Below, piece by piece: positions 1,712-25,100 of a stretch of DNA of 26,238 bases. Position numbers and translations under genes: made by a program. Origin of the DNA: a virus (taxonomy: Duplodnaviria > Heunggongvirae > Uroviricota > Caudoviricetes); IMG/VR virus record IMGVR_UViG_2728369593_000006. The stretch is one strand, 5' to 3'. Under the pieces are notes generated by a model. That model saw only the letters and a program-made list of their open reading frames with translations. It was not told where the DNA came from and did no database searches. Each line of letters starts with the position of its first letter. The stretch's first letter is position 1.

Positions 1712-2275
1712 ATGAGGCTAACCGTGGGTAAGCATCACTGGAAAGTAGAAAAACAGCCTGAGTGGTACGTGAAAGCTGTCAGAAAAACTATCGCGGCGTT
1801 GCCGGGGGGTTACGCTGAAGCTGCTGAGTGGCTGGATGTAACAGAGAACGCTTTATTCAACCGCCTTCGTGCAGATGGCGATCAGATTTTCCCGCTGGGA
1901 TGGGCAATGATTTTACAGCGCGCGGCTGGCACTCACTACATTGCGGATGCTGTCGCACAGTCTGCTGGTGGGGTGTTTGTATCGCTTCCTGAAATTGAGG
2001 AAGTAGAGAACGCCGATATAAACCAGCGCCTGCTGGAAGTCATCGAACAGATCGGGAGTTACTCAAAGCAGATTCGTTCGGCAATCGAAGATGGGGTAGT
2101 GGAGCCACACGAGCAGACAGCAATTAATGATGAGTTGTATCTGTCAATTTCGAAGCTCCAGGAGCATGCAGCACTGGTCTACAAAATCTTTTGCGCTCCA
2201 GAAAAGAGTGACGCCCGCGAGTGTGCAGCTCCGGGCGTCGTGGCGTGTCGTGACTGTGGAGAAACTAACGCATGA
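1712..2275 (+). CDS. CII-like regulatory protein (CP76-type phage CII family)
   Basis: 187 aa directly downstream of cro in the rightward operon; family recalled from memory, not searched. Confidence 0.45.
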   Translation: MRLTVGKHHWKVEKQPEWYVKAVRKTIAALPGGYAEAAEWLDVTENALFNRLRADGDQIFPLGWAMILQRAAGTHYIADAVAQSAGGVFVSLPEIEEVENADINQRLLEVIEQIGSYSKQIRSAIEDGVVEPHEQTAINDELYLSISKLQEHAALVYKIFCAPEKSDARECAAPGVVACRDCGETNA

Positions 2276-3108
2276 ACAGTTTAACGGCAAATAACCGTTT
2301 GTCGCAACAGCTGGTGGTCAGCGTCGCTGAACACCTGTTGTTACGGCATGAATGCAGATTACCAAATCACCTGGCTGTAAGTAACCACAGAGAACTTTAC
2401 CTGACTGTGGGGGGCGAGTTGTGCAGGAACTTAACCGCTGGTTTCGTGACGGAAGAGGACTTTATGTTCATGTTATTCGTTGGGAGCCAGAAACACAGCG
2501 CGTTATCTATCTTCGCAAAGACTACCCGCATGAGTGCTTTAGTCCTTTGTGGAAATTCAGGCGTGATTTTGTTGAGTGTGAAGGACCACCAGCACATTGA
2601 TTCTGCCATTCCGGGACGTTACACTGTTCAGGCACCTTATAAAGCGGGTGCCGGGATTGGCGTCCTGGAATTGATCAAGGCGATATATGACGCGCCAGCG
2701 TCTTTTTTATCGTCCGCATTTGCTCACATCAAAGTTATGGTGGGCTGGGCGGGGGCATCGAAAGATGCGCCGGTTTCCTTGATCACCGGTTACGCCAACC
2801 CCGTTCAGTTCACCACCAGCGAAATTGGCGTTTCCGGTGGTGGAAGTATTTCACCGATCAAGGAGGCTGCCATCATGGCTACTGTCCCAGCCCTCACTCG
2901 TCTGAATGATGAAGACTTACATAAACTCAGTTATGTAACAACTGCACTACGTGCTCTGCGCAAGGTAACTCTTTCGGATCCGCAGGCGCATCAGGTTTTG
3001 GTAGAAACCCTTCTTAACTTGCAGGCTGAACGTATTCGTCTGGCGGATAAGGCTAATTTTCATATTCACCGTCTCCTGAATATCAGCGGAGGGCATCGTC
3101 ATGCTTAA
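2272..3108 (+). CDS. Hypothetical early-operon protein
   Basis: 278-aa ORF whose ATG overlaps the upstream stop (ATGA), indicating translational coupling; no family recognised. Confidence 0.4.
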   Translation: MNSLTANNRLSQQLVVSVAEHLLLRHECRLPNHLAVSNHRELYLTVGGELCRNLTAGFVTEEDFMFMLFVGSQKHSALSIFAKTTRMSALVLCGNSGVILLSVKDHQHIDSAIPGRYTVQAPYKAGAGIGVLELIKAIYDAPASFLSSAFAHIKVMVGWAGASKDAPVSLITGYANPVQFTTSEIGVSGGGSISPIKEAAIMATVPALTRLNDEDLHKLSYVTTALRALRKVTLSDPQAHQVLVETLLNLQAERIRLADKANFHIHRLLNISGGHRHA

Positions 3109-3337
3109 TCCGTTGATCCTCAATATTTGCCGTTTGCTTCAGCGTAAAAAAACATCAATTCCTACAGTTGGGCAGTGGTACACCACGCCTGCAGGGCATG
3201 TTCTACGTGTTAGCCTGGTTGACCGTGAATGTCAGAAGGTGATTTGTGAACCGCTGGGCCGTAATTACCGCGTCAGTATGCCGCTTATAACCTTTCGCTC
3301 CGGAAAAAACATGAAGCATCTCGGAGGTGCAGCATGA
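3101..3337 (+). CDS. Hypothetical small protein
   Basis: 78-aa ORF with start and stop overlapping its neighbours in the coupled operon. Confidence 0.35.
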   Translation: MLNPLILNICRLLQRKKTSIPTVGQWYTTPAGHVLRVSLVDRECQKVICEPLGRNYRVSMPLITFRSGKNMKHLGGAA

Positions 3338-4218
3338 GTATGGAGCTGATGGTTAAAGCGATGAAAATTCGAGTGGGTAATCCATTGCGAAAACTGGTTC
3401 TGATCAAGCTGGCTGATAATGCCAGCGATCAGGGTGAGTGCTGGCCCAGCTACCAGCATATTGCTGACCAGTGCGAGATTAGCAAACGTTCTGTGATGAA
3501 TCATATTGCGGCCCTTTGTGAGTCCGGGCTGGTAAAAAAAGTCACCCGGAAAGGTGAAAAAGGTAACTCAAGTAATATCTATCTCCTTCATCTGGATGGT
3601 GCAGGAGATTCACTAGGGGGTAGTGCAAATAATTCACTATCTGGTGCAGCAAATTCACCAGGTAGTGCAGGAGATTCACTAGGGGGTAGTGCAAATAATT
3701 CACTATCTGGTGCAGCAAATTCACCAGGTAGTGCAGGAGTTGCACTAGGGGGTAGTGCAGGAGATTCACCCAGAACCAGTCACTCTTTTGAACCAGTCAA
3801 AGAACCAGTCAATGAACCAATAGCTGTTGGTGCATCTGCTGATGAGTCTGTGCGAGTTCGTTCAAACCGACCGGAATACTCTCCGGAGTTTGAGCAGGCA
3901 TGGCTGGCATATCCCAAACGTGCTGGTGGCAATTCAAAATCTGCAGCCTTCAAAGCCTGGAAAGCCCGTTTGAATGAGGGGGTAAACCCCGAAACCATGC
4001 TGGAAGGTGTGAAACGCTATGCGGGCTGGGTATCTGCGATGGGTAACAGCGGCACACAATTTGTGAAACAGGCTGTCACGTTCTTTGGTCCGGATCGTCA
4101 TTTCGAAGAATCCTGGGAAGTTCCTGCGGTATCTGCAGCCAGACGTGAGGACCCGTACTTCAAAGCCAGTTACGACAACGTGGACTACAGCCAGATCCCG
4201 GCAGGATTCAGGGGGTGA
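3334..4218 (+). CDS. Replication initiator (O-like): N-terminal winged-helix origin-binding domain, repeat linker, DnaT-like C-terminal domain
   Basis: N-terminus typical of phage replisome-organiser wHTH proteins; C-terminus ends ...SQIPAGFRG, resembling the C-terminus of primosomal protein DnaT as I recall it; internal tandem DNA repeats (iterons). Confidence 0.65.
   Translation: MSMELMVKAMKIRVGNPLRKLVLIKLADNASDQGECWPSYQHIADQCEISKRSVMNHIAALCESGLVKKVTRKGEKGNSSNIYLLHLDGAGDSLGGSANNSLSGAANSPGSAGDSLGGSANNSLSGAANSPGSAGVALGGSAGDSPRTSHSFEPVKEPVNEPIAVGASADESVRVRSNRPEYSPEFEQAWLAYPKRAGGNSKSAAFKAWKARLNEGVNPETMLEGVKRYAGWVSAMGNSGTQFVKQAVTFFGPDRHFEESWEVPAVSAARREDPYFKASYDNVDYSQIPAGFRG
3598..3780. repeat. 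Intragenic iteron array (candidate origin of replication): about 8 copies of an 18-24 bp unit GTGCA(G/A)NA(A/G)ATTCAC(T/C)A arranged as a 66-bp higher-order repeat, followed by 3 copies of GAACCAGTCA (3782-3820)
   Basis: Read directly; the 66-bp unit GTAGTGCAGGAGATTCACTAGGGGGTAGTGCAAATAATTCACTATCTGGTGCAGCAAATTCACCAG occurs twice exactly, then a degenerate third copy; analogous to the lambda ori inside gene O. Confidence 0.6.
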
Positions 4219-4220
4219 TC

Positions 4221-4709
4221 ATGAGTCTTTTGAATGAAGTTCAGAAATTCATTGAAGCCCATCCGGGGTGTACTTCCGGAGACATTGCGGATGCTTTTGC
4301 AGGTTACTCACGGCAGCGCGTTCTGCAGTCAGCAAGCAAGTTACGTCAGAGTGGGCGTGTGGCTCACCGTTGTGAAGGGGATACACGCAGACATTTCCCG
4401 CGCCAGACAAAGATATCGCCGGAGGCGGAACGGCAACCAGTTCGTGAAACCAGACCTGTGCGCAATTTCTATGTCGGCACTAACGACCCGCGGGAGATTT
4501 TATGCCTGACCCGCCAGGCTGAAGAACTGGAGTCCAGGGGCTTATACCGTCGTGCTGCAACGGTGTGGATGGCGGCATTCCGTGAAAGCCACTCCCAGCC
4601 AGAACGAAACAATTTTCTGGCGCGTCGTGAGCAGTGTTTACGGAAAAGCAGCAAGCGCGCTGTATCGGGTGATGAGTGGTATCTGTCAGGGAATTACGTG
4701 GGGGCTTAA
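4221..4709 (+). CDS. Putative transcriptional regulator: N-terminal wHTH, C-terminal PerC/ANR-like domain
   Basis: C-terminal motif LESRGLYRRAATVW...RREQCL resembles the PerC family (GLWRRAA...RRNYCL) as recalled from memory; start at ATG 4221 (ORF track begins at GTG 4215). Confidence 0.4.
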   Translation: MSLLNEVQKFIEAHPGCTSGDIADAFAGYSRQRVLQSASKLRQSGRVAHRCEGDTRRHFPRQTKISPEAERQPVRETRPVRNFYVGTNDPREILCLTRQAEELESRGLYRRAATVWMAAFRESHSQPERNNFLARREQCLRKSSKRAVSGDEWYLSGNYVGA

Positions 4710-5362: not shown

Positions 5363-5685
5363 CGACGTTAACTCAATGCCAGCAGCAGGTGCTGGATATG
5401 CTGATTTCTTATCAGAAAGAACGTGGCTTCCCGCCAACCAATCAGGAGGTGGCAACCATGCTGGGATACCGTTCGGTGAATGCAGCGGTGGAGCATCTTC
5501 GCGCACTGGAGAAAAAAGGCGTCATCACGATAAAGCGTGGCGTGGCCCGGGGGATCACGCTTCATACCGCAGTGAAGGACGACGACAGCGAAGCGGTCGG
5601 TATCATCCGCGCACTGCTTGCCGGTGAGGAGAACGCCAGGTTGCGTGCAGCCCACTGGTTACATGAGAGGGGCTTGAAAGTATGA
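5359..5685 (+). CDS. LexA N-terminal DNA-binding-domain homologue without a peptidase domain
   Basis: 108 aa; LTQCQQQVLDMLISYQKERGFPPTNQEVATMLGYRSVNAAVEHLRALEKKGVI parallels E. coli LexA residues about 1-70 ([53 protein letters not shown]). Confidence 0.65.
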   Translation: MTTLTQCQQQVLDMLISYQKERGFPPTNQEVATMLGYRSVNAAVEHLRALEKKGVITIKRGVARGITLHTAVKDDDSEAVGIIRALLAGEENARLRAAHWLHERGLKV

Positions 5686-6072
5686 AGTTGATCCTTCCTT
5701 TCCCGCCCAGTGTGAACACGTACTGGCGACACCCCAACAAAGGGGCATTTGCTGGTAAGAGCCTGATAAGCGAGGCGGGGCGAAAATTTCAGAGCGCGGC
5801 GTGCGCAGCAATAGTTGAGCAGTTACGTCGTCTGCCGAAACCAACGTCGGCACCTGCTTCAGTGGAGATCGTGTTGTTTCCGCCGGATAACCGGATCCGT
5901 GATCTGGACAACTATAACAAGGCGCTGTTTGACGTCCCTGACCCCAGCGGGTGTGTGGGAAGACGACAGACAGGTGAAAAGAATGCTGGTGGAGTGGGGA
6001 CCGGTTATCCCGAAAGGGAAGGTCGAGATCACTATCAGTAAGTACGAGAAAACGGCGGGTGCAGCCGCCTGA
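5682..6072 (+). pseudogene. rusA: RusA Holliday-junction resolvase, interrupted by a +1 frameshift at about 5934-5940
   Basis: Frame A (5682..5936) ends ...DLDNYNKALFDV then reads nonsense; frame B continues LTPAGVWEDDRQVKRMLVEWGPVIPKGKVEITISKYE to the stop at 6072, matching the RusA C-terminus; junction is at a CCC run (GTCCCTG). Confidence 0.7.
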
Positions 6073-6903: not shown

Positions 6904-7900
6904 GTGACCGTGAGAGCACTACTGACCCCTGAAATTGCCCCGCGTATGGGGATCGTATTGTTCAGACCAGGTTCAGAGCTGATGCCCCTGTTTATGCAGG
7001 GGCGTGTCCTGCTGGAGCCTGAGCCGGAGCATTATTCATCTTTCGCCAGTGGTGCCGTTCCCGCGGCATCACAACCGCTGGCGGATGATCCTGTCGTTCG
7101 GGCCGTGTTCCGTAATGAGGCAGTGATTCGTCGTGCTGGTGGCGTGGAATGTCTTGAAAGCTGGTTACTTCGTAAAAAAGGCTGCCAGTGGCCTCATTCC
7201 GACTGGCACAGCGAGAACATGACCACAATGCGACACGCGCCGGGCGCAATCCGTCTGTGCTGGCACTGTGATAACCAGCTGCGCGATCAGTTCACGGAAC
7301 GGCTGGAATCAATGGCAACGGATAACTGTACCCGCTGGGTGTTGTCTGTTGTGCGTCGGGATCTCGGTTTTGATGACAGTCACGTTGTGACAATTGCCGG
7401 AACTGTGCTGGTGGCTGATTCGTAATGACCTGGCGGATGCCTTACCGGAAAGTGCAGCCCGTAAGGCACTGAGATTACCAAAGCCTGTTGTGCCGTCTGT
7501 CACCCGGGAAAGTGACCTTGTGCCTTCGGTTCCTGCCACCAGCATCATCCAGGATAAAGCGAAAAAGGTGCTGGCGCTGAAAGTGGATCCGGAGTCGCCG
7601 GAGTCTTTTATGTTACGCCCAAAACGTCGCCGCTGGGTTAATGAAAAGTACACGCGCTGGGTTAAGACACAGCCGTGTGCATGTTGTGGAAAGCCCGCTG
7701 ATGATCCCCACCACCTGATAGGTCACGGTCAGGGTGGAATGGGAACAAAAGCGCATGACCTTTTTGTGTTGCCTTTGTGCAGAAAGCATCACGACGAGCT
7801 GCATGCGGATACCGTGGCATTTGAAGAGAAGTATGGCTCCCAGCTGGAGCTGATATTTCGTTTTATCGATCGTGCGCTGGCAATTGGCGTGCTGGCCTGA
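6904..7900 (+). pseudogene. DUF968/YdfU-like protein with HNH-like C-terminal motif, possibly split by a +1 frameshift near 7418-7426 (alternatively two adjacent genes)
   Basis: ORFs 6904..7425 and 7394..7900 lie in different frames and overlap; combined length (about 340 aa) is what I recall for YdfU-type DUF968 proteins; C-terminal CxxC...HH...H motif. Confidence 0.4.
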
Positions 7901-13118: not shown

Positions 13119-15219
13119 ATGGGTTTTTCATCAGCCCGAAATTTGGGAAGGGACATATCGGCAGGATTTTCCCCACCACGTCGCATGCCGATTTCGGAGG
13201 CTGTTAAAAAATTCATGCGTGTTCCCAAGGGGGCTGGTAACTCGGTGCCATGGGATCCTGAACTGACACCCTACATCATTGAGCCCATGAACTGCCTGGC
13301 ATCGCGTGAATACGATGCGGTGATTTTTGTTGGTCCTGCGCGAACAGGGAAGACCATTGGTCTGATCGATGGATGGATTGTCTATACCATCGTTTGCGAT
13401 CCTTCGGACATGCTCGTTGTGCAGATGACCGAAGATAAGGCCCGCGAGCATTCTAAAAAGCGCCTCGACAGAACGTTCAGAAGCAGTGCGGCGGTAAAGA
13501 AAAGAATGAGTCCACGTCGTAACGACAATAATGTTCATGATAAGACGTTCAGGGATGGCTCGTTCCTTAAAATTGGTTGGCCCTCGGTCAACATTATGTC
13601 GTCGTCGGATTACCGGTTTGTCGCCTTAACCGATTACGACCGTTTTCCGGAGAATATCGACAGCGAGGGTGATGGTTTCTCCCTGGCCTCAAAACGTACC
13701 ACCACATTTATGTCCGCCGGGATGACTCTGGTGGAGAGCTCGCCGGGACGTGACATCTGCGACAGCAAATGGCGACGTAAGTCGCCTCATGAAGCGCCAC
13801 CGACGACTGGTATTCTTTCCCTTTACAATCGTGGTGACCGCCGCCGCTGGTACTGGCCATGTCCGCACTGTGGTGAGTATTTTCAGCCAGCCATGGATGC
13901 CATGACCGGCTACCGTAATGAACCGGATCCCTTTAAAGCCAGTGAGGCGGCGTATCTACTTTGCCCGCACTGCAGCGGCATTATCACTGCGGAGAAAAAG
14001 CGTGAGCTCAATAGTGCAGGAGTCTGGTTGCGTGAAGGTCAGGTCATTGATCGTAACGGCAACGTTTCCGGTGAACCGCGCCGCTCCCGTATCGCCAGTT
14101 TCTGGATGGAAGGGCCAGCTGCTGCGTATCAGACCTGGGCGCAACTGGTTTACAAATTACTGACTGCAGAACAGGAGTATGAAGCGACAGGAAGCGAAGA
14201 AACACTCAGGGCGGTTATCAATACCGACTGGGGATTACCTTATCTTCCCCGCGCCAGCATGGAGCAACGAAAAAGTGAACTGCTTGAGCAGCGGGCAGAG
14301 CCAGTTCCTTCCCGCAGTGTGCCGGATGGCGTTAATTTCCTTGTGGCGGCAGTGGATGTGCAGGCGGGACGTCATCGCCGTTTTGTGGTTCAGGTAACGG
14401 GCTATGGCAGCCGTGGCGAACGCTGGATTATTGATCGTTACAACATCACGCAGCCATTGCGCGGTGACAGCGACGGGGAGAGCCAGCGAATTGATCCGGC
14501 CAGCTATCCGGAAGACTGGGATGTCCTGCTGACGGATGTTTTTCATAAAAAGCTGGCCGCTGGCCTCCGATCCTTCTCAACAAATGCGACTGATGGCAAT
14601 GGCGGTGGACTCCGGCGGTGAAGACGGGGTCACTGATAATGCCTATAAATTCTGGCGTCGTTGCCGTCGTGATGGCCTTGGTAAACGTATTTACCTGTTT
14701 AAGGGCGACAGCATCCGGCGCGCAAAACTGATCACCCGTACATTCCCTGATAACACCGGACGAACGGGCCGACGGGCGCAGGCCGCAGGTGATGTGCCGC
14801 TCTGGCTTCTTCAGACGGATGCCCTGAAAGACCGGGTGAATAACGCGTTATGGCGTGACTCGCCAGGTCCCGGCTATGTGCATTTCCCTGACTGGCTGGG
14901 GAGCTGGTTTTACGACGAACTGACGTACGAAGAGCGGAGTAGTGACGGGAAATGGAGTAAGCCGGGTCGCGGTGCCAACGAAGCTTTTGACCTGATGGTG
15001 TATGCCGAGGCTCTGGTCATTCTGCATGGATACGAAAAGATCCGCTGGCCGGATGCACCGGAGTGGGCGAGCCGGGAAACCTGGCTGGAGTGTGTCCCGG
15101 ACAGTACCGAACCGTCACCCTCACCGGAACCAGTATCCACGCCTGTTAAAAAACAAAAACGGAAGAAAACAGTAACTGACGATGTTAACCCCTGGCTGAC
15201 TTCCGGAGGATGGTTATGA
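13119..15219 (+). pseudogene. Terminase large subunit (lambda GpA family), interrupted by a +1 frameshift at about 14553-14590
   Basis: Walker A GPARTGKT and the CPHCG...CPHC zinc-finger region in ORF 13119..14621; the remaining C-terminal region (ORF 14536..15219, MAMAVDSGG...) is in the next frame with an 86-bp overlap; combined length about 700 aa. Confidence 0.75.
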
Positions 15220-22114: not shown

Positions 22115-25100
22115 TTTGGGGATTGATGCGGCAGAGTTTAAAAATGAAATCCCCCGTATCAAAAACCTTCTGAATGGTGCAGCCAGCGATGCAGAACGGT
22201 CTTCTGCCCGTATGCAGCGTTTTATGGAGCGTCAGACTCAGGCCGCCCGGCAGACAACGCAGGCGGCTTCTTCGGCTGCAACAGCCGCATCCGTCCATGC
22301 GCAGACGGTGGAGAAGAACGCACAGGCTCATGAACGCATGGCCCGCGAGGTGGAGAAAACCCGCCAGCGCATGGAGGCGCTGAGCCAGAAAATGCGCGAG
22401 GAACAGGCGCAGGCCATGGCTCTGGCGGAGGCTCAGGATAAAGCGGCTGCTGCGTTTTATCGTCAGATTGACAGTGTGAAACAGGCCAGTGCGGGGCTGC
22501 AGGAATTACAGCGTATTCAGCAGCAGATCCGACAGGCCAGAAACAGTGGCGGGATTGGTCAGCAGGATTATCTGGCGCTGATTTCTGAGGTTACGGCGAA
22601 AACCCGTGTTCTTACACAGGCTGAGGAAGAGGGTACCCGACAGAAAGTGGCGTTTATCCGTCAGCTTAAAGAGCAGGCAACCCGCCAGAATCTTTCATCT
22701 TCTGAGTTGCTTCGTGCTAAGGCTGCCCAGCTGGGGGTAAGCAGTGCTGCAGAAGTGTATATCCGCAAAATGGAGCAGGCAGGAAAAGCCACGCATTCGC
22801 TGGGTCTGAAAAGTGCAGCGGCCCGCCAGGAGATAGGCGTTCTGATAGGTGAACTGGCCCGCGGCAATTTAGGGGCGCTGAGGGGATCCGGGATAACGCT
22901 GGCTAACCGTGCCGGATGGATAGACACACTGATGTCACCGAAAGGCATGATGCTGGGCGGGGTTATTGGCGGTATTGCCGCAGCTGTCTATGGTCTGGGT
23001 AAAGCCTGGTATGACGGTCAGAAGGAGGGGGAAGAATTTAACCGCCAGCTGTCGCTGACGGGGCATTATGCCGGAGTCACTGCCGGGCAGCTGTGGACGC
23101 TCAGTCGTGCTATTTCCGGGAATGGTATCACGCAACATGCTGCAGCCGGTGCGCTGGCTCAGGTGGTGGGGAGTGGTGCATTTCGTGGAAACGATATCGG
23201 TATGGTGGCGAGAGCTGCCGCACAGATGGAGCGATCGGTTGGCCAGTCGGTCAGCGATACCATAAGTCAGTTTAAGCGGCTGAAGGATGATCCTGTAAAT
23301 GCCGCGAAGGCTCTGGACAATGAGCTGCATTTTCTTACTGCCACTCAGCTTGAGCAGATACGCGTCCTTGGGGAACAGGGGCGGTCCAGTGATGCGGCAC
23401 GGATAGCCATGTCTGCACTGGCAGAGGAAACCGGTCGGCGTACTGCGGATATTGATAATAACCTCAATGCGCTGGGCAGTACGCTGAAGTATCTGTCTGA
23501 TTTATGGAGTCGTTTCTGGGATGCGGCCATGAATATTGGTCGTGAAGACTCGCTGGATGAACAGATTTCCGCTTTACAGGAGAAAGTGTCGCGGGCGAAA
23601 AGACTCCCCTGGACGGCATCATCTTCTCAGGTTGAGTACGATCAGCAGCGTCTTAACGAGCTTCAGGAAAAAAAACGCCAGAAGGATTTGCAGGATGCAA
23701 AAGAGCAGGCAGAGCGGAATTATCAGGAGCAACAGAAACGCCGTAATGCTGAAAATGCTGCACTGAACCGGATGAATGAAACGGAAGCAGCACGACATCA
23801 GCGTGAAATTGCGCGTATTAATGCCATGCAGTACGCCGATCAGACTGTCAGGGATGCGGCGATACAACGTGAAAATGAACGTTACGAGAAAGCCCTGGCA
23901 TCCGGTAAGAAAAAAACACGCGAAACCCGTAATGATGAGGCCACCCGGTTATTGCTGCAGTACAGTCAGCAACAGGCACAGGTGGAAGGACAGATTGCTG
24001 CTGCCAGACAGTCAGCAGGCATTGCCACGGAAAGGATGACAGAAGCGCATAAACAGCTTCTGGCTCTGCAGCAGCGCATCAGCGACCTGGACGGGAAAAA
24101 ACTGACGGCAGATGAAAAGAGTGTGCTGGCCCGTAAAGATGAACTGATTCAGGCACTGACGCTGCTGGATGTAAAACAGCAGGAGCTTCAGAAACAGACG
24201 GCACTCAACGAGCTGAAGAAAAAAACAATTCAGCTGACCAGTCAACTGGCTGAAGAAGAGCGTGCTCAGCGTCAACAACATAATCTGGATATCGCCACGG
24301 TGGGTATGGGTGATCAGCAGCGGCAGCGATATCAGGTACAACTGAGTCTTCGTCAGAAATACCAGCAACAGCTGGAGCAGTTGAGGCGGGATAGTGAGCA
24401 GAAAGGGACATATAACACGGATGACTACAGAAAGGCCGAGCAGGCGCTGACGGAGAGCCTGAACCGACAACTGAATGAGAATCGCCGTTACTGGCAACAG
24501 CTTGAAATTGCTCAGGGTAACTGGAAAAACGGAGTCCTGCGTGCACTCCAGAATGTCACTGAGAATGCGGATAACACAGCCTGGACAGTGGAACAGTTGT
24601 TCACGTCTGCGTTCAGTAGCATGAGTGACTGGCTGGCGACATTCTGTACTACAGGCAAACTCAATTTCAAATCTTTTACTTCTTCTGTGCTGTCAGATAT
24701 GTCCAGAATCATGGCTCAGATAGCTTTAATGAAAGCGGTAAAAGGCATTGCTTCCGCGCTGCCTTTTGATTTTGTAGCCAATGCTGATGGCGGTGTTTAT
24801 CAGTCGGCTGATTTGAGTCGCTACAGTGGCACGGTGGTTAACCGTCCGACGTTTTTTGCTTTTGCAAAAGGCGCGGGTGTGATGGGGGAAGCGGGACCTG
24901 AAGCCATTCTGCCATTGCGTCGTGGTGCTGACGGTAAGCTGGGGGTTGTGGCGGATATTGGGGGTTCAGGTATGGCGATGTTTTCCCCGCAGTACAACAT
25001 CGAGATCAATAACGATGGCACGAACGGGCAGATAGGTCCGGCTGCCCTGAAGGCGGTTTATGACCTCGGGAAAAAAGCGGCAGCGGACTTTATGCAACAG

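Follow-up and report, generated by a model that had tools for sequence, protein, structure and literature searches.

How does a phage replicate its DNA from a module that holds an initiator gene and no gene for a helicase loader? We addressed this question for a 26,238-nucleotide stretch of DNA from a virus of the Caudoviricetes (IMG/VR record IMGVR_UViG_2728369593_000006; the whole stretch is hereafter the window), in whose ORF (open reading frame) listing an intact ORF at 3334..4218 (+) encodes a 294-aa replication initiator. The protein matches PHROG 270, 'replication initiation protein', with E=4e-88 and shows 100% identity to the orf46 product of phage cdtI, itself annotated 'replication protein'. 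We found that its resemblance to the host primosomal protein DnaT is confined to a short C-terminal tail, and that the type of tail tracks the loader and helicase genes that adjoin the initiator gene. Our preferred reading, which we hold with moderate confidence, is that the initiator imitates DnaT to engage host DnaB-DnaC, and so takes the place of the PriA/DnaT primosome instead of calling it in. The parts of the gene on which this reading draws are the following:

3334..4218 (+): initiator gene of the 'initiator-solo' type, with the origin within it (ORF; PHROG 270; identity to cdtI orf46 and SfV orf39)
3334..3597 (+): N-terminal winged-helix DNA-binding domain, aa 1-88 (Pfam HTH_36; AlphaFold2 pLDDT 88-97)
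3599..3769 (no strand): eight iterons GTGCA-N5-TKCAC, starting at 3599, 3623, 3644, 3665, 3689, 3710, 3731 and 3755
3599..3730 (no strand): perfect 66-bp tandem duplication of a three-iteron block, 3599-3664 = 3665-3730 (100% identity; the BLAST overlap agrees)
3607..3867 (+): disordered linker, aa 92-178, encoded by the origin DNA (AlphaFold2 pLDDT below 50)
3769..3818 (no strand): conserved origin core CCAGAACCAGTCACTCTTTTGAACCAGTCAAAGAACCAGTCAATGAACC with three GAACCAGTCA repeats at 3773, 3790 and 3802 (conserved as DNA)
3874..4119 (+): C-terminal helical domain, aa 181-262 (AlphaFold2 pLDDT 90-98)
4144..4215 (+): portable DnaT-like tail REDPYFKASYDNVDYSQIPAGFRG, aa 271-294 (identity to the DnaT end; pLDDT 52-69)

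A preliminary description of this DNA had proposed a replication initiator with an origin inside its own linker-coding region, and the PHROG 270 match, the HTH_36 domain and the iteron array bear this out. The winged helix claimed for the N-terminus was found as well: Pfam HTH_36 matches aa 17-67 (E=2e-11), and an AlphaFold2 model built from a 53-sequence alignment confidently places three to four helices and a beta-hairpin wing in aa 1-88. HTH_36 was matched instead of the lambda-specific Pfam family Phage_rep_O, which gave no match in the initiator. This N-terminal domain is highly conserved over ~25 gammaproteobacterial genera. The C-terminal helical domain (C-domain), when modelled by itself, reached a core pLDDT above 95, and it had no significant fold match in the PDB. 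It belongs to a family of 4545 representative clusters (E<=1e-3) with the signature FExAW..YPKRAGGN.K..A.KAW.AR...G..P..M..GV.RYA...ATGK.GT.FVKQA.TFFGPD.HF.E.W.

The likeness to DnaT lies at the very end of the protein. BLASTP against E. coli K-12 DnaT aligned only the last nine residues, eight of which are identical (SQIPAGFRG vs SQIPPGFRG), and the C-terminal ends read EPDSQIPPGFRG in DnaT and VDYSQIPAGFRG in the initiator. The conserved DnaT ending ..(E/Q)PDxxIPxGFRG is present in the initiator. The ending ..IPxGFRG closes nearly all of the 120 DnaT sequences that we retrieved, a few of them with two extra residues, and is present in ~10% of the phage C-domain representatives. Some phage-domain members carry VNxISEPDxxIPPGFRG, to be compared with VNTVSEPDSQIPPGFRG in DnaT, so that the match extends up to ~24 residues. 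A DnaT HMM (hidden Markov model) matches the tail-bearing members of the family with E values from 1e-4 to 3e-7, in alignments ranging from 22-24 up to 57-80 columns, and hhalign aligned the profile of the tail-bearing subfamily with DnaT 105-179 at a probability of 95.6% (E=1.2e-8). With the tails cut off, the probability fell to 5-9% (P ~0.004-0.008), the register remaining unchanged in every case.

Beyond the tail, the comparisons with DnaT gave little. The whole C-domain family scored a probability of only 5% in hhalign against the DnaT alignment; the Pfam DnaT domain PF17948 (the three-helix DNA-binding domain, DnaT aa 89-154) found no match in the initiator even at E<=10; searches with the C-terminal 132 aa against Pfam, NCBIfam and, by phmmer, PDB sequences returned no DnaT match; and BLASTP found no similarity in the initiator to DnaT 1-88. 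In view of the hhalign values for the whole family and for the tail-less profiles, we discarded the idea that the C-terminal globular domain is a DnaT domain. Therefore, the DnaT-like C-terminus seen in the preliminary description has to be narrowed: the end of the protein is significantly DnaT-like, but this holds for the last ~10-25 residues, outside PF17948, and not for 120 aa. The HMM check that the description had suggested came out in the same divided way, with a match for the tail and neither a Pfam match nor a convincing profile match for the domain without it. In our reading, the tail is homologous to the end of DnaT, while the globular parts of the C-domain and of DnaT may be very distantly related. 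In the literature that we searched, we found no account of a function of the DnaT tail or of 'DnaT-like' phage proteins.

The distribution of the tail among phage genes indicates that it is a portable, exchangeable module. The last 76 nt of the initiator gene are 96-97% identical in SfII, mEp460_4F5, vB_EcoS-569R4 and PhiR29_2, the replication genes of which otherwise show no DNA-level alignment to the initiator gene. In the SfII protein, the winged helix and the repeat linker (DPSKSDASKS..) are of a different make and the C-domain is unrelated; even so, its last 24 residues are identical. Conversely, relatives that share the N-domain, iterons and C-domain with the initiator end in ..DKFGKSSDKLTF, ..SEQDYGQSDCNW or ..DDFGESGENLNF. 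All named members with the tail (from Escherichia, Kluyvera, Citrobacter, Klebsiella, Pantoea and Erwiniaceae) belong to the Enterobacterales, the group that has DnaT.

As regards the other ends found in the family, nearly all are acidic and close on a hydrophobic or aromatic residue (..NLNF, ..KLTF, ..DCNW, ..GWEDFI, ..PEDPLI, ..SEDF, ..NEYL), and they recall the C-terminal tip of SSB. Each type pairs with a particular neighbour, be it P-like, DnaC-like, DnaB-like or none. In general, the outermost C-terminal residues of this initiator family may serve as a partner-docking peptide.

We next turn to the helicase loader, which the preliminary description had reported to be missing from the module. 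This is indeed the case: the window contains no relative of lambda P, DnaC, DnaB or primase, and the gene that follows the initiator is PerC-like; a nearly identical complete prophage has no P-, DnaC- or DnaB-like gene; and the functional phages SfV and cdtI (complete genome, 47 kb) have no helicase, loader or primase gene. A loader elsewhere in the early operon, which the description had named as a finding that would speak against its proposal, was looked for and not found. The sole large unknown of cdtI, a 710-aa ORF, was considered as a hidden helicase and ruled out, since it shows a CHAT domain only.

The C-terminal end of the initiator and the gene downstream of it vary together. Among initiators sharing the origin core, the C-terminal class predicts the next gene, which is P-like for two classes, DnaB for one and DnaC-like for others. 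In a set of 146 distinct initiators, each followed by 2.5 kb or more of sequence, tail, C-domain and neighbour combined as follows:

IPxGFRG tail and window-type C-domain (FFGP core): no loader after the initiator, 29/29
Other tail and window-type C-domain (FFGP core): DnaC-like (>255 aa) and DnaB-like genes next, 9/10
IPxGFRG tail and other C-domain: DnaC (246 aa) next, 2/2

For the FFGP-core initiators, 29/29 vs 9/10 corresponds to a Fisher value of 4.7e-8, calculated on sequences that are related to one another. On Pfam-annotated contigs, three alternative tails were accompanied in 9/9 places by IstB_IS21 (292-297 aa) and DnaB_C (451-463 aa), and in two more IPxGFRG relatives, from Salmonella and from a metagenome, PerC or Dam adjoins the initiator. 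For IPxGFRG initiators on other backbones, from Klebsiella, a Kluyvera/Citrobacter-named cluster, Enterobacter and others, the next gene begins only a few bases further on and encodes a DnaC ortholog of 246-249 aa, with no DnaB after it. These tail-paired orthologs are 47-51% identical to E. coli DnaC over the full length, and the order of initiator and DnaC gene mirrors the host's dnaT-dnaC operon. Loaders that go with other tails on the FFGP core are DnaC-like in their ATPase part only (30-35% identity) and have a different N-terminus. Since the tail co-varies with the type of the adjoining loader or helicase gene, we would place its partner on the DnaB-DnaC side rather than on that of PriA.

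In family members from Pseudomonas (299-309 aa, ending in ..RQAGERNEYL or ..NAFL), no gene resembling DnaC, DnaB or P was detectable in the 3.3 kb downstream of the initiator, and their C-domain is unrelated to that of the window initiator. Because these members lack a detectable loader, 'initiator-solo' modules also occur in hosts that use DciA and not DnaC.

The origin itself lies in the DNA that encodes the linker. Its basic iteron is a 15-mer, GTGCA-N5-TKCAC, with GTG(C/A)A at either end in inverted orientation; copy seven, GTGCAGGAGTTGCAC, forms a perfect palindrome. The eight copies are spaced 24-21-21-24-21-21-24 bp, or two helical turns, and all fall within 3599-3769, against 0.22 sites expected in the 26-kb window; none of 100 shuffles (0/100) matched this count. 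Tandem Repeats Finder reports a 66-bp unit present 2.4 times at 3599-3759 (97% matches) and a 21-bp sub-period at 3599-3769. The array and the 66-bp higher-order repeat of the preliminary description are therefore real, although its limits are 3599-3769 and not 3598-3780. DnaA boxes were sought and none was found near the origin.

Since the iterons are coding, the suggestion had been made that their copy number sets the length of the protein linker, and a comparison across relatives of 242-302 aa upheld it, the linker changing in iteron-sized steps:

242 aa: about 1 iteron
250 aa: 2 iterons
272 aa, by far the most common form (cluster of 2852 sequences): 5 iterons
294 aa, the window initiator: 8 iterons
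296-302 aa: 9 iterons

Relative to the common 272-aa form (819 nt), the window initiator has 22 extra residues because the 66-bp duplication added three iterons. In the wider family, origins consist of 3-5 dyad-symmetric units at 21-24-bp spacing, the last step always being 24 bp. Their half-sites vary by lineage (GTGCA, GTGAA, GTGAC, GTGTA, TGCCA, ATGCC and others) and co-vary across the family with the presumed recognition helix of the winged-helix domain, which is the classical signature of initiator-iteron pairs.

Adjoining the iterons is a second element, conserved as DNA. The 10-mer GAACCAGTCA occurs exactly three times in the window, at 3773-3782, 3790-3799 and 3802-3811, that is, with a spacing of 17 and 12 bp. 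These copies had previously been counted as part of the iteron array; the three copies are there, but they are not iterons of this phage's specificity and form a separate element. The surrounding CCAGAACCAGTCACTCTTTTGAACCAGTCAAAGAACCAGTCAATGAACC element (~45 bp) is 90-97% identical at the DNA level in Vibrio and Stenotrophomonas phages with differing iterons and C-terminal domains, and its exact 28-nt core is found in at least 120 IMG/VR contigs, with at least 8 C-terminal classes and many iteron types. We also collected 80 prophage loci, one genome per species, picked by the N-terminal protein domain alone, so that the DNA element itself was not selected for. These loci cover ~25 genera, including Pseudomonas, Marinomonas, Aeromonas, Shewanella, Aliivibrio, Xenorhabdus, Proteus, Providencia, Erwinia and Avibacterium. 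The repeat element, in the form GAAYCAGTCA, was present in 77/80 of them, in the same place (~340-450 nt into each initiator gene) and with the same 17- and 12-bp spacing.

The way in which this core element is conserved does not follow the reading frame. Where it varies, C/T exchanges replace the encoded residue (Thr/Ile, Pro/Ser); third-codon positions (AGA, AGT, CAC, TCT, GAA, GTC) are invariant, high-GC Pseudomonas included. One and the same gene translates the 10-mer in two frames, AGA-ACC-AGT-CA giving RTSH and GAA-CCA-GTC-A giving EPV, and Shewanella and Aliivibrio loci read it in further registers. As third positions are invariant and frames differ, we conclude that selection acts on the DNA of the element and that the peptide RTSHSFEPV is a by-product. 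By its position, the element is the best candidate for the site of duplex opening or helicase entry.

Considering all the above results, a plausible course of initiation can be proposed. Initiator dimers would attach to the iterons by way of the winged helix, forming a complex similar to the lambda O-some, and the neighbouring conserved repeat element would provide the point of duplex opening or of helicase entry. The C-domain and its tail (..SQIPAGFRG) would then dock on the host partner of DnaT's own tail, most likely the DnaB-DnaC complex, with the result that host DnaB could be delivered without a phage P or DnaC protein and without PriA or DnaT. The tail would act as an exchangeable adaptor, and relatives with other tails would supply a DnaC-like loader and a DnaB-like helicase of their own. 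Gain or loss of iterons, as in the 66-bp, three-iteron duplication found here, would alter the number of binding sites and the linker length jointly. A further-reaching version, which we regard as possible though doubtful, is that IPxGFRG is the link still missing between DnaT and the helicase, a small peptide that docks on DnaC or DnaB-DnaC and is common to DnaT and to loader-less initiators. The initiator would then mimic DnaT, be targeted by sequence and hijack the DnaB-DnaC of the host, and on induction it may out-compete DnaT and cripple restart, and the host DnaT-DnaC pair would be a domesticated phage pair of 'initiator C-end + DnaC'.

The preliminary description had drawn another conclusion, namely that the phage recruits a PriA/DnaT-type primosome of the host. 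If so, the DnaT-like end would bring the PriA-PriB-DnaT restart primosome to the opened origin, and replication would depend on priA and dnaT. The module encodes no loader, the IPxGF part of the tail is hydrophobic and conserved, and a cryo-EM study of the preprimosome has DnaT's C-terminal domain docked on PriA via a hydrophobic surface that is conserved (PMC13377028), all of which would suit such recruitment. However, a protein with DnaT's own tail would compete with DnaT and not recruit it; the tail type tracks the adjoining loader and helicase genes and nothing related to PriA; IPxGFRG initiators stand directly upstream of DnaC orthologs, like dnaT; and no role of the tail is described in the available part of the structural study (PMC13377028). 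Recruitment of the restart primosome thus does not follow from a DnaT-tailed protein, which more plausibly stands in for DnaT, and we consider it unlikely. We judge equally unlikely that the C-domain and tail are a DnaT-like module for binding single-stranded DNA (ssDNA), forming filaments that keep the melted origin open, while some other surface or host factors recruit the helicase and the tail does not serve as a docking peptide. Indeed, two studies describe the DnaT C-domain as ssDNA-binding and filament-forming (PMC4132743, PMC13377028), hhalign places the helices of the family on DnaT alpha1-alpha2 in a consistent register, and the tail has aromatic and basic residues. Nevertheless, the similarity of the core alone is not significant and has no fold match behind it, SfII carries the tail on an unrelated C-domain, and the tail is swapped exactly where loader and helicase genes are gained or lost, which one would not expect from a generic ssDNA-binding tail.

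Two further explanations can be set aside as very improbable. The module might be incomplete, either because the prophage is defective or because a helper phage or co-resident prophage has to provide the loader, and single-base indels do disrupt cI, rusA, DUF968 and terminase genes in the window. Yet the same one-gene module is found in records of isolated or complete phages (cdtI, SfV, mEp460, Ayreon, ST64B and several Stx2 phages) and also in 452 complete E. coli genomes. It is just as hard to believe that the repeats are a mere low-complexity coding repeat, a Gly/Ser/Ala linker, with the origin located elsewhere: the repeat region does encode a disordered Gly/Ser-rich peptide, but the units are dyad-symmetric, keep a fixed 21/24-bp phasing and occur nowhere else in the window, their half-sites change along with the winged-helix recognition region across the family, the adjoining element is conserved as DNA whatever the frame, and the position is equivalent to that of ori-lambda inside O.

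Our preferred reading, in which the initiator stands in for DnaT, also has to face several points that weigh against it. The choice of DnaB-DnaC as the partner comes from gene-neighbourhood co-variation only, and the counts behind it are dominated by closely related E. coli prophages that are not phylogenetically independent. Xenorhabdus and Photorhabdus initiators that end in EQFISEDF also adjoin full-length DnaC-like genes, so that IPxGFRG is not the sole way to work with a DnaC-type loader. The region beside the iterons is only mildly AT-rich (~40% GC at 3780-3819), which makes an unwinding-site role of the core element a guess. The copy of the gene in the window resides in a prophage whose other genes are broken by ~10 single-base indels. 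Finally, the 2026 preprimosome structure favours DnaT's N-terminal domain as the candidate recruiter of DnaB/DnaC, with the C-terminal domain on PriA (PMC13377028). DnaT is thought to recruit DnaB/DnaC, and both a 2017 review and the 2026 cryo-EM study state the mechanism of this hand-over from the PriA-PriB-DnaT preprimosome to be unknown (PMC5778457, PMC13377028).

Compared with known systems, the module is close in design to lambda O and ori-lambda. Both have an N-terminal DNA-binding domain, an origin inside the initiator's own gene with dyad-symmetric iterons where the linker is encoded (in lambda, four sites of 18 bp at ~20-24-bp spacing), and a C-terminal part tied to helicase loading, and the modular swapping of N- and C-halves is shared with the initiators of lambdoid phages. 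In contrast to lambda, the window module has no P gene or P-binding domain and uses HTH_36 instead of Phage_rep_O; it has eight iterons, a conserved repeat element in place of a pronounced AT-rich block, and a DnaT-like tail. With E. coli DnaT the initiator shares the type of C-terminal end, and each has a link to DnaA-independent delivery of DnaB; it differs in having no detectable PF17948 domain, N-terminal oligomerisation domain or acidic PriB-binding linker, and it would be targeted by sequence-specific binding to iterons and not by PriA/PriB.

Iteron plasmids provide another precedent. The winged-helix initiators RepA of pSC101, TrfA of RK2 and pi of R6K act on direct repeats and use host DnaB-DnaC with no encoded loader, and these plasmids usually need DnaA boxes and DnaA and have non-coding iterons. 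In the window, unlike in the plasmids, there is no DnaA box near the origin and the iterons are coding.

The DopC protein of the DopC/DopE pair, described by Brezellec et al. in 2017, combines HTH_36 with a 'DnaT C-terminal motif' (HHpred against 2ru8) and derives from a phage O-like gene (PMC5509034). It resembles the window initiator in joining HTH_36 to a region that is profile-aligned with the DnaT C-terminus, an alignment that in the initiator is driven by the tail. DopC differs in being chromosomal, in having a P-like partner, DopE, and in lacking iterons (PMC5509034), whereas the window initiator has a full iteron origin and no partner gene. The initiators of SfV (orf39), cdtI (orf46) and mEp460 and the HTH_36 proteins of Stx phages are the same gene (98-100% identity) in the same order, some of them annotated 'primosomal protein I'. 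The literature that we searched gives no mechanism for SfV/cdtI-type initiators, no role of their tail and no account of the conserved DNA element. For Stx phages, the Eru6/Eru13-like region has been described as an Ash/Rha protein followed by an HTH_36 protein, with no mechanism offered (PMC8951638). We found no description of 'initiator-solo' modules in the searched literature. Weigel and Seitz (2006) are said to have classed such modules under that name.

The initiator gene and the one-gene module are thus already known from annotation, intragenic iterons from the lambda paradigm, and the combination of HTH_36 with a DnaT C-terminus from DopC. Within the literature searched, two aspects appear to be undescribed, namely that the likeness to DnaT is confined to an exchangeable tail that tracks reliance on a DnaC-type or host loader, and that the GAACCAGTCA origin core is conserved across Gammaproteobacteria independently of the frame. 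The former amounts to a short peptide on a phage initiator that evolution has swapped repeatedly, the DnaT tail going with a DnaC-type loader or none and other tails with their own loader and helicase. It singles out ~10-25 residues of DnaT as a peptide-level target. We regard the interest of these findings as moderate, mainly because the open question of the DnaT hand-over becomes a simple peptide-level experiment. The GAACCAGTCA element, as a compact DNA-level origin core, could serve to find prophage origins across Gammaproteobacteria. Moreover, the proposed scheme would explain single-gene replication in widespread prophages of E. coli and Shigella, among them Shiga-toxin, cytolethal-distending-toxin and serotype-converting phages.

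As for its surroundings, the region most likely represents the entire replication module of a lambdoid prophage of the SfV/cdtI type, made up of a single initiator gene with the origin embedded in it. Besides cdtI orf46, counterparts that are 98-99% identical to the initiator occur in SfV (orf39, 98%), mEp460, Ayreon, 2H10 and several Stx2a/Stx2c/Stx2k phages; homologues are labelled 'replication protein' in the records of cdtI, SfV, mEp460, Ayreon, ST64B and Stx2 phages, and that of phage 1720a-02 (98-99% identity) carries the annotation 'primosomal protein I'. The first 9 kb of the window are found at >=80% coverage in 452 complete E. coli genomes. The early genes follow the SfV order, with a cI-like repressor, cro, CII-like, Ash-family, 78-aa ORF and initiator; further downstream, also as in SfV, come PerC-like, Dam, a protein with a LexA DNA-binding domain, RusA, KilA-N, DUF968/HNH and Q. 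The remainder of the window consists of lysis, head and tail genes. The two genes that flank the initiator are:

3101..3337 (+): 78-aa ORF, PHROG 1153, overlapping the initiator start (ATGA)
4215..4709 (+): PerC/ANR-like transcriptional activator of 164 aa, in the slot of lambda P (Pfam PerC, E=9e-10; PHROG 1324 'transcriptional activator')

Translation of the 78-aa ORF and of the initiator is probably coupled, given their overlap at the start codon of the latter (ATGA). A homolog with 58% identity occupies the same position in loader-less cdtI and in modules with DnaC-like and DnaB-like genes. The ORF was considered as a cryptic loader and ruled out, since its homolog is also kept in modules that encode DnaC-like and DnaB-like proteins; it is a conserved companion of the initiator and no substitute for a loader.

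Upstream of this ORF, the Ash-family gene at 2272-3108 (+) encodes 278 aa in the window and in SfV. In a relative from E. coli Q5 (22419-23106), the ash region is annotated as a DUF4222 ORF and a shorter ash ORF, and the most divergent stretch of the early region, by comparison with this relative, is 2670-2734.

Relative to a 98%-identical prophage, the window has ~10 single-base indels, at 1235, 1247, 5935, 6139, 7394, 10505, 14547, 15253, 25587 and 26176. They truncate or split cI (713-1243), rusA (5682-6041), DUF968/HNH (6904-7425 and 7394-7900) and the large terminase (13119-14621 and 14536-15219). These indels reflect either a decaying prophage or sequencing errors of the homopolymer type.

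The cdtI ORF mentioned above, orf33 (87-2219), encodes the 710-aa 'hypothetical protein' next to the integrase, and its CHAT domain is that of a caspase-like protease. This protein is possibly the product of a phage-borne defence or abortive-infection gene.

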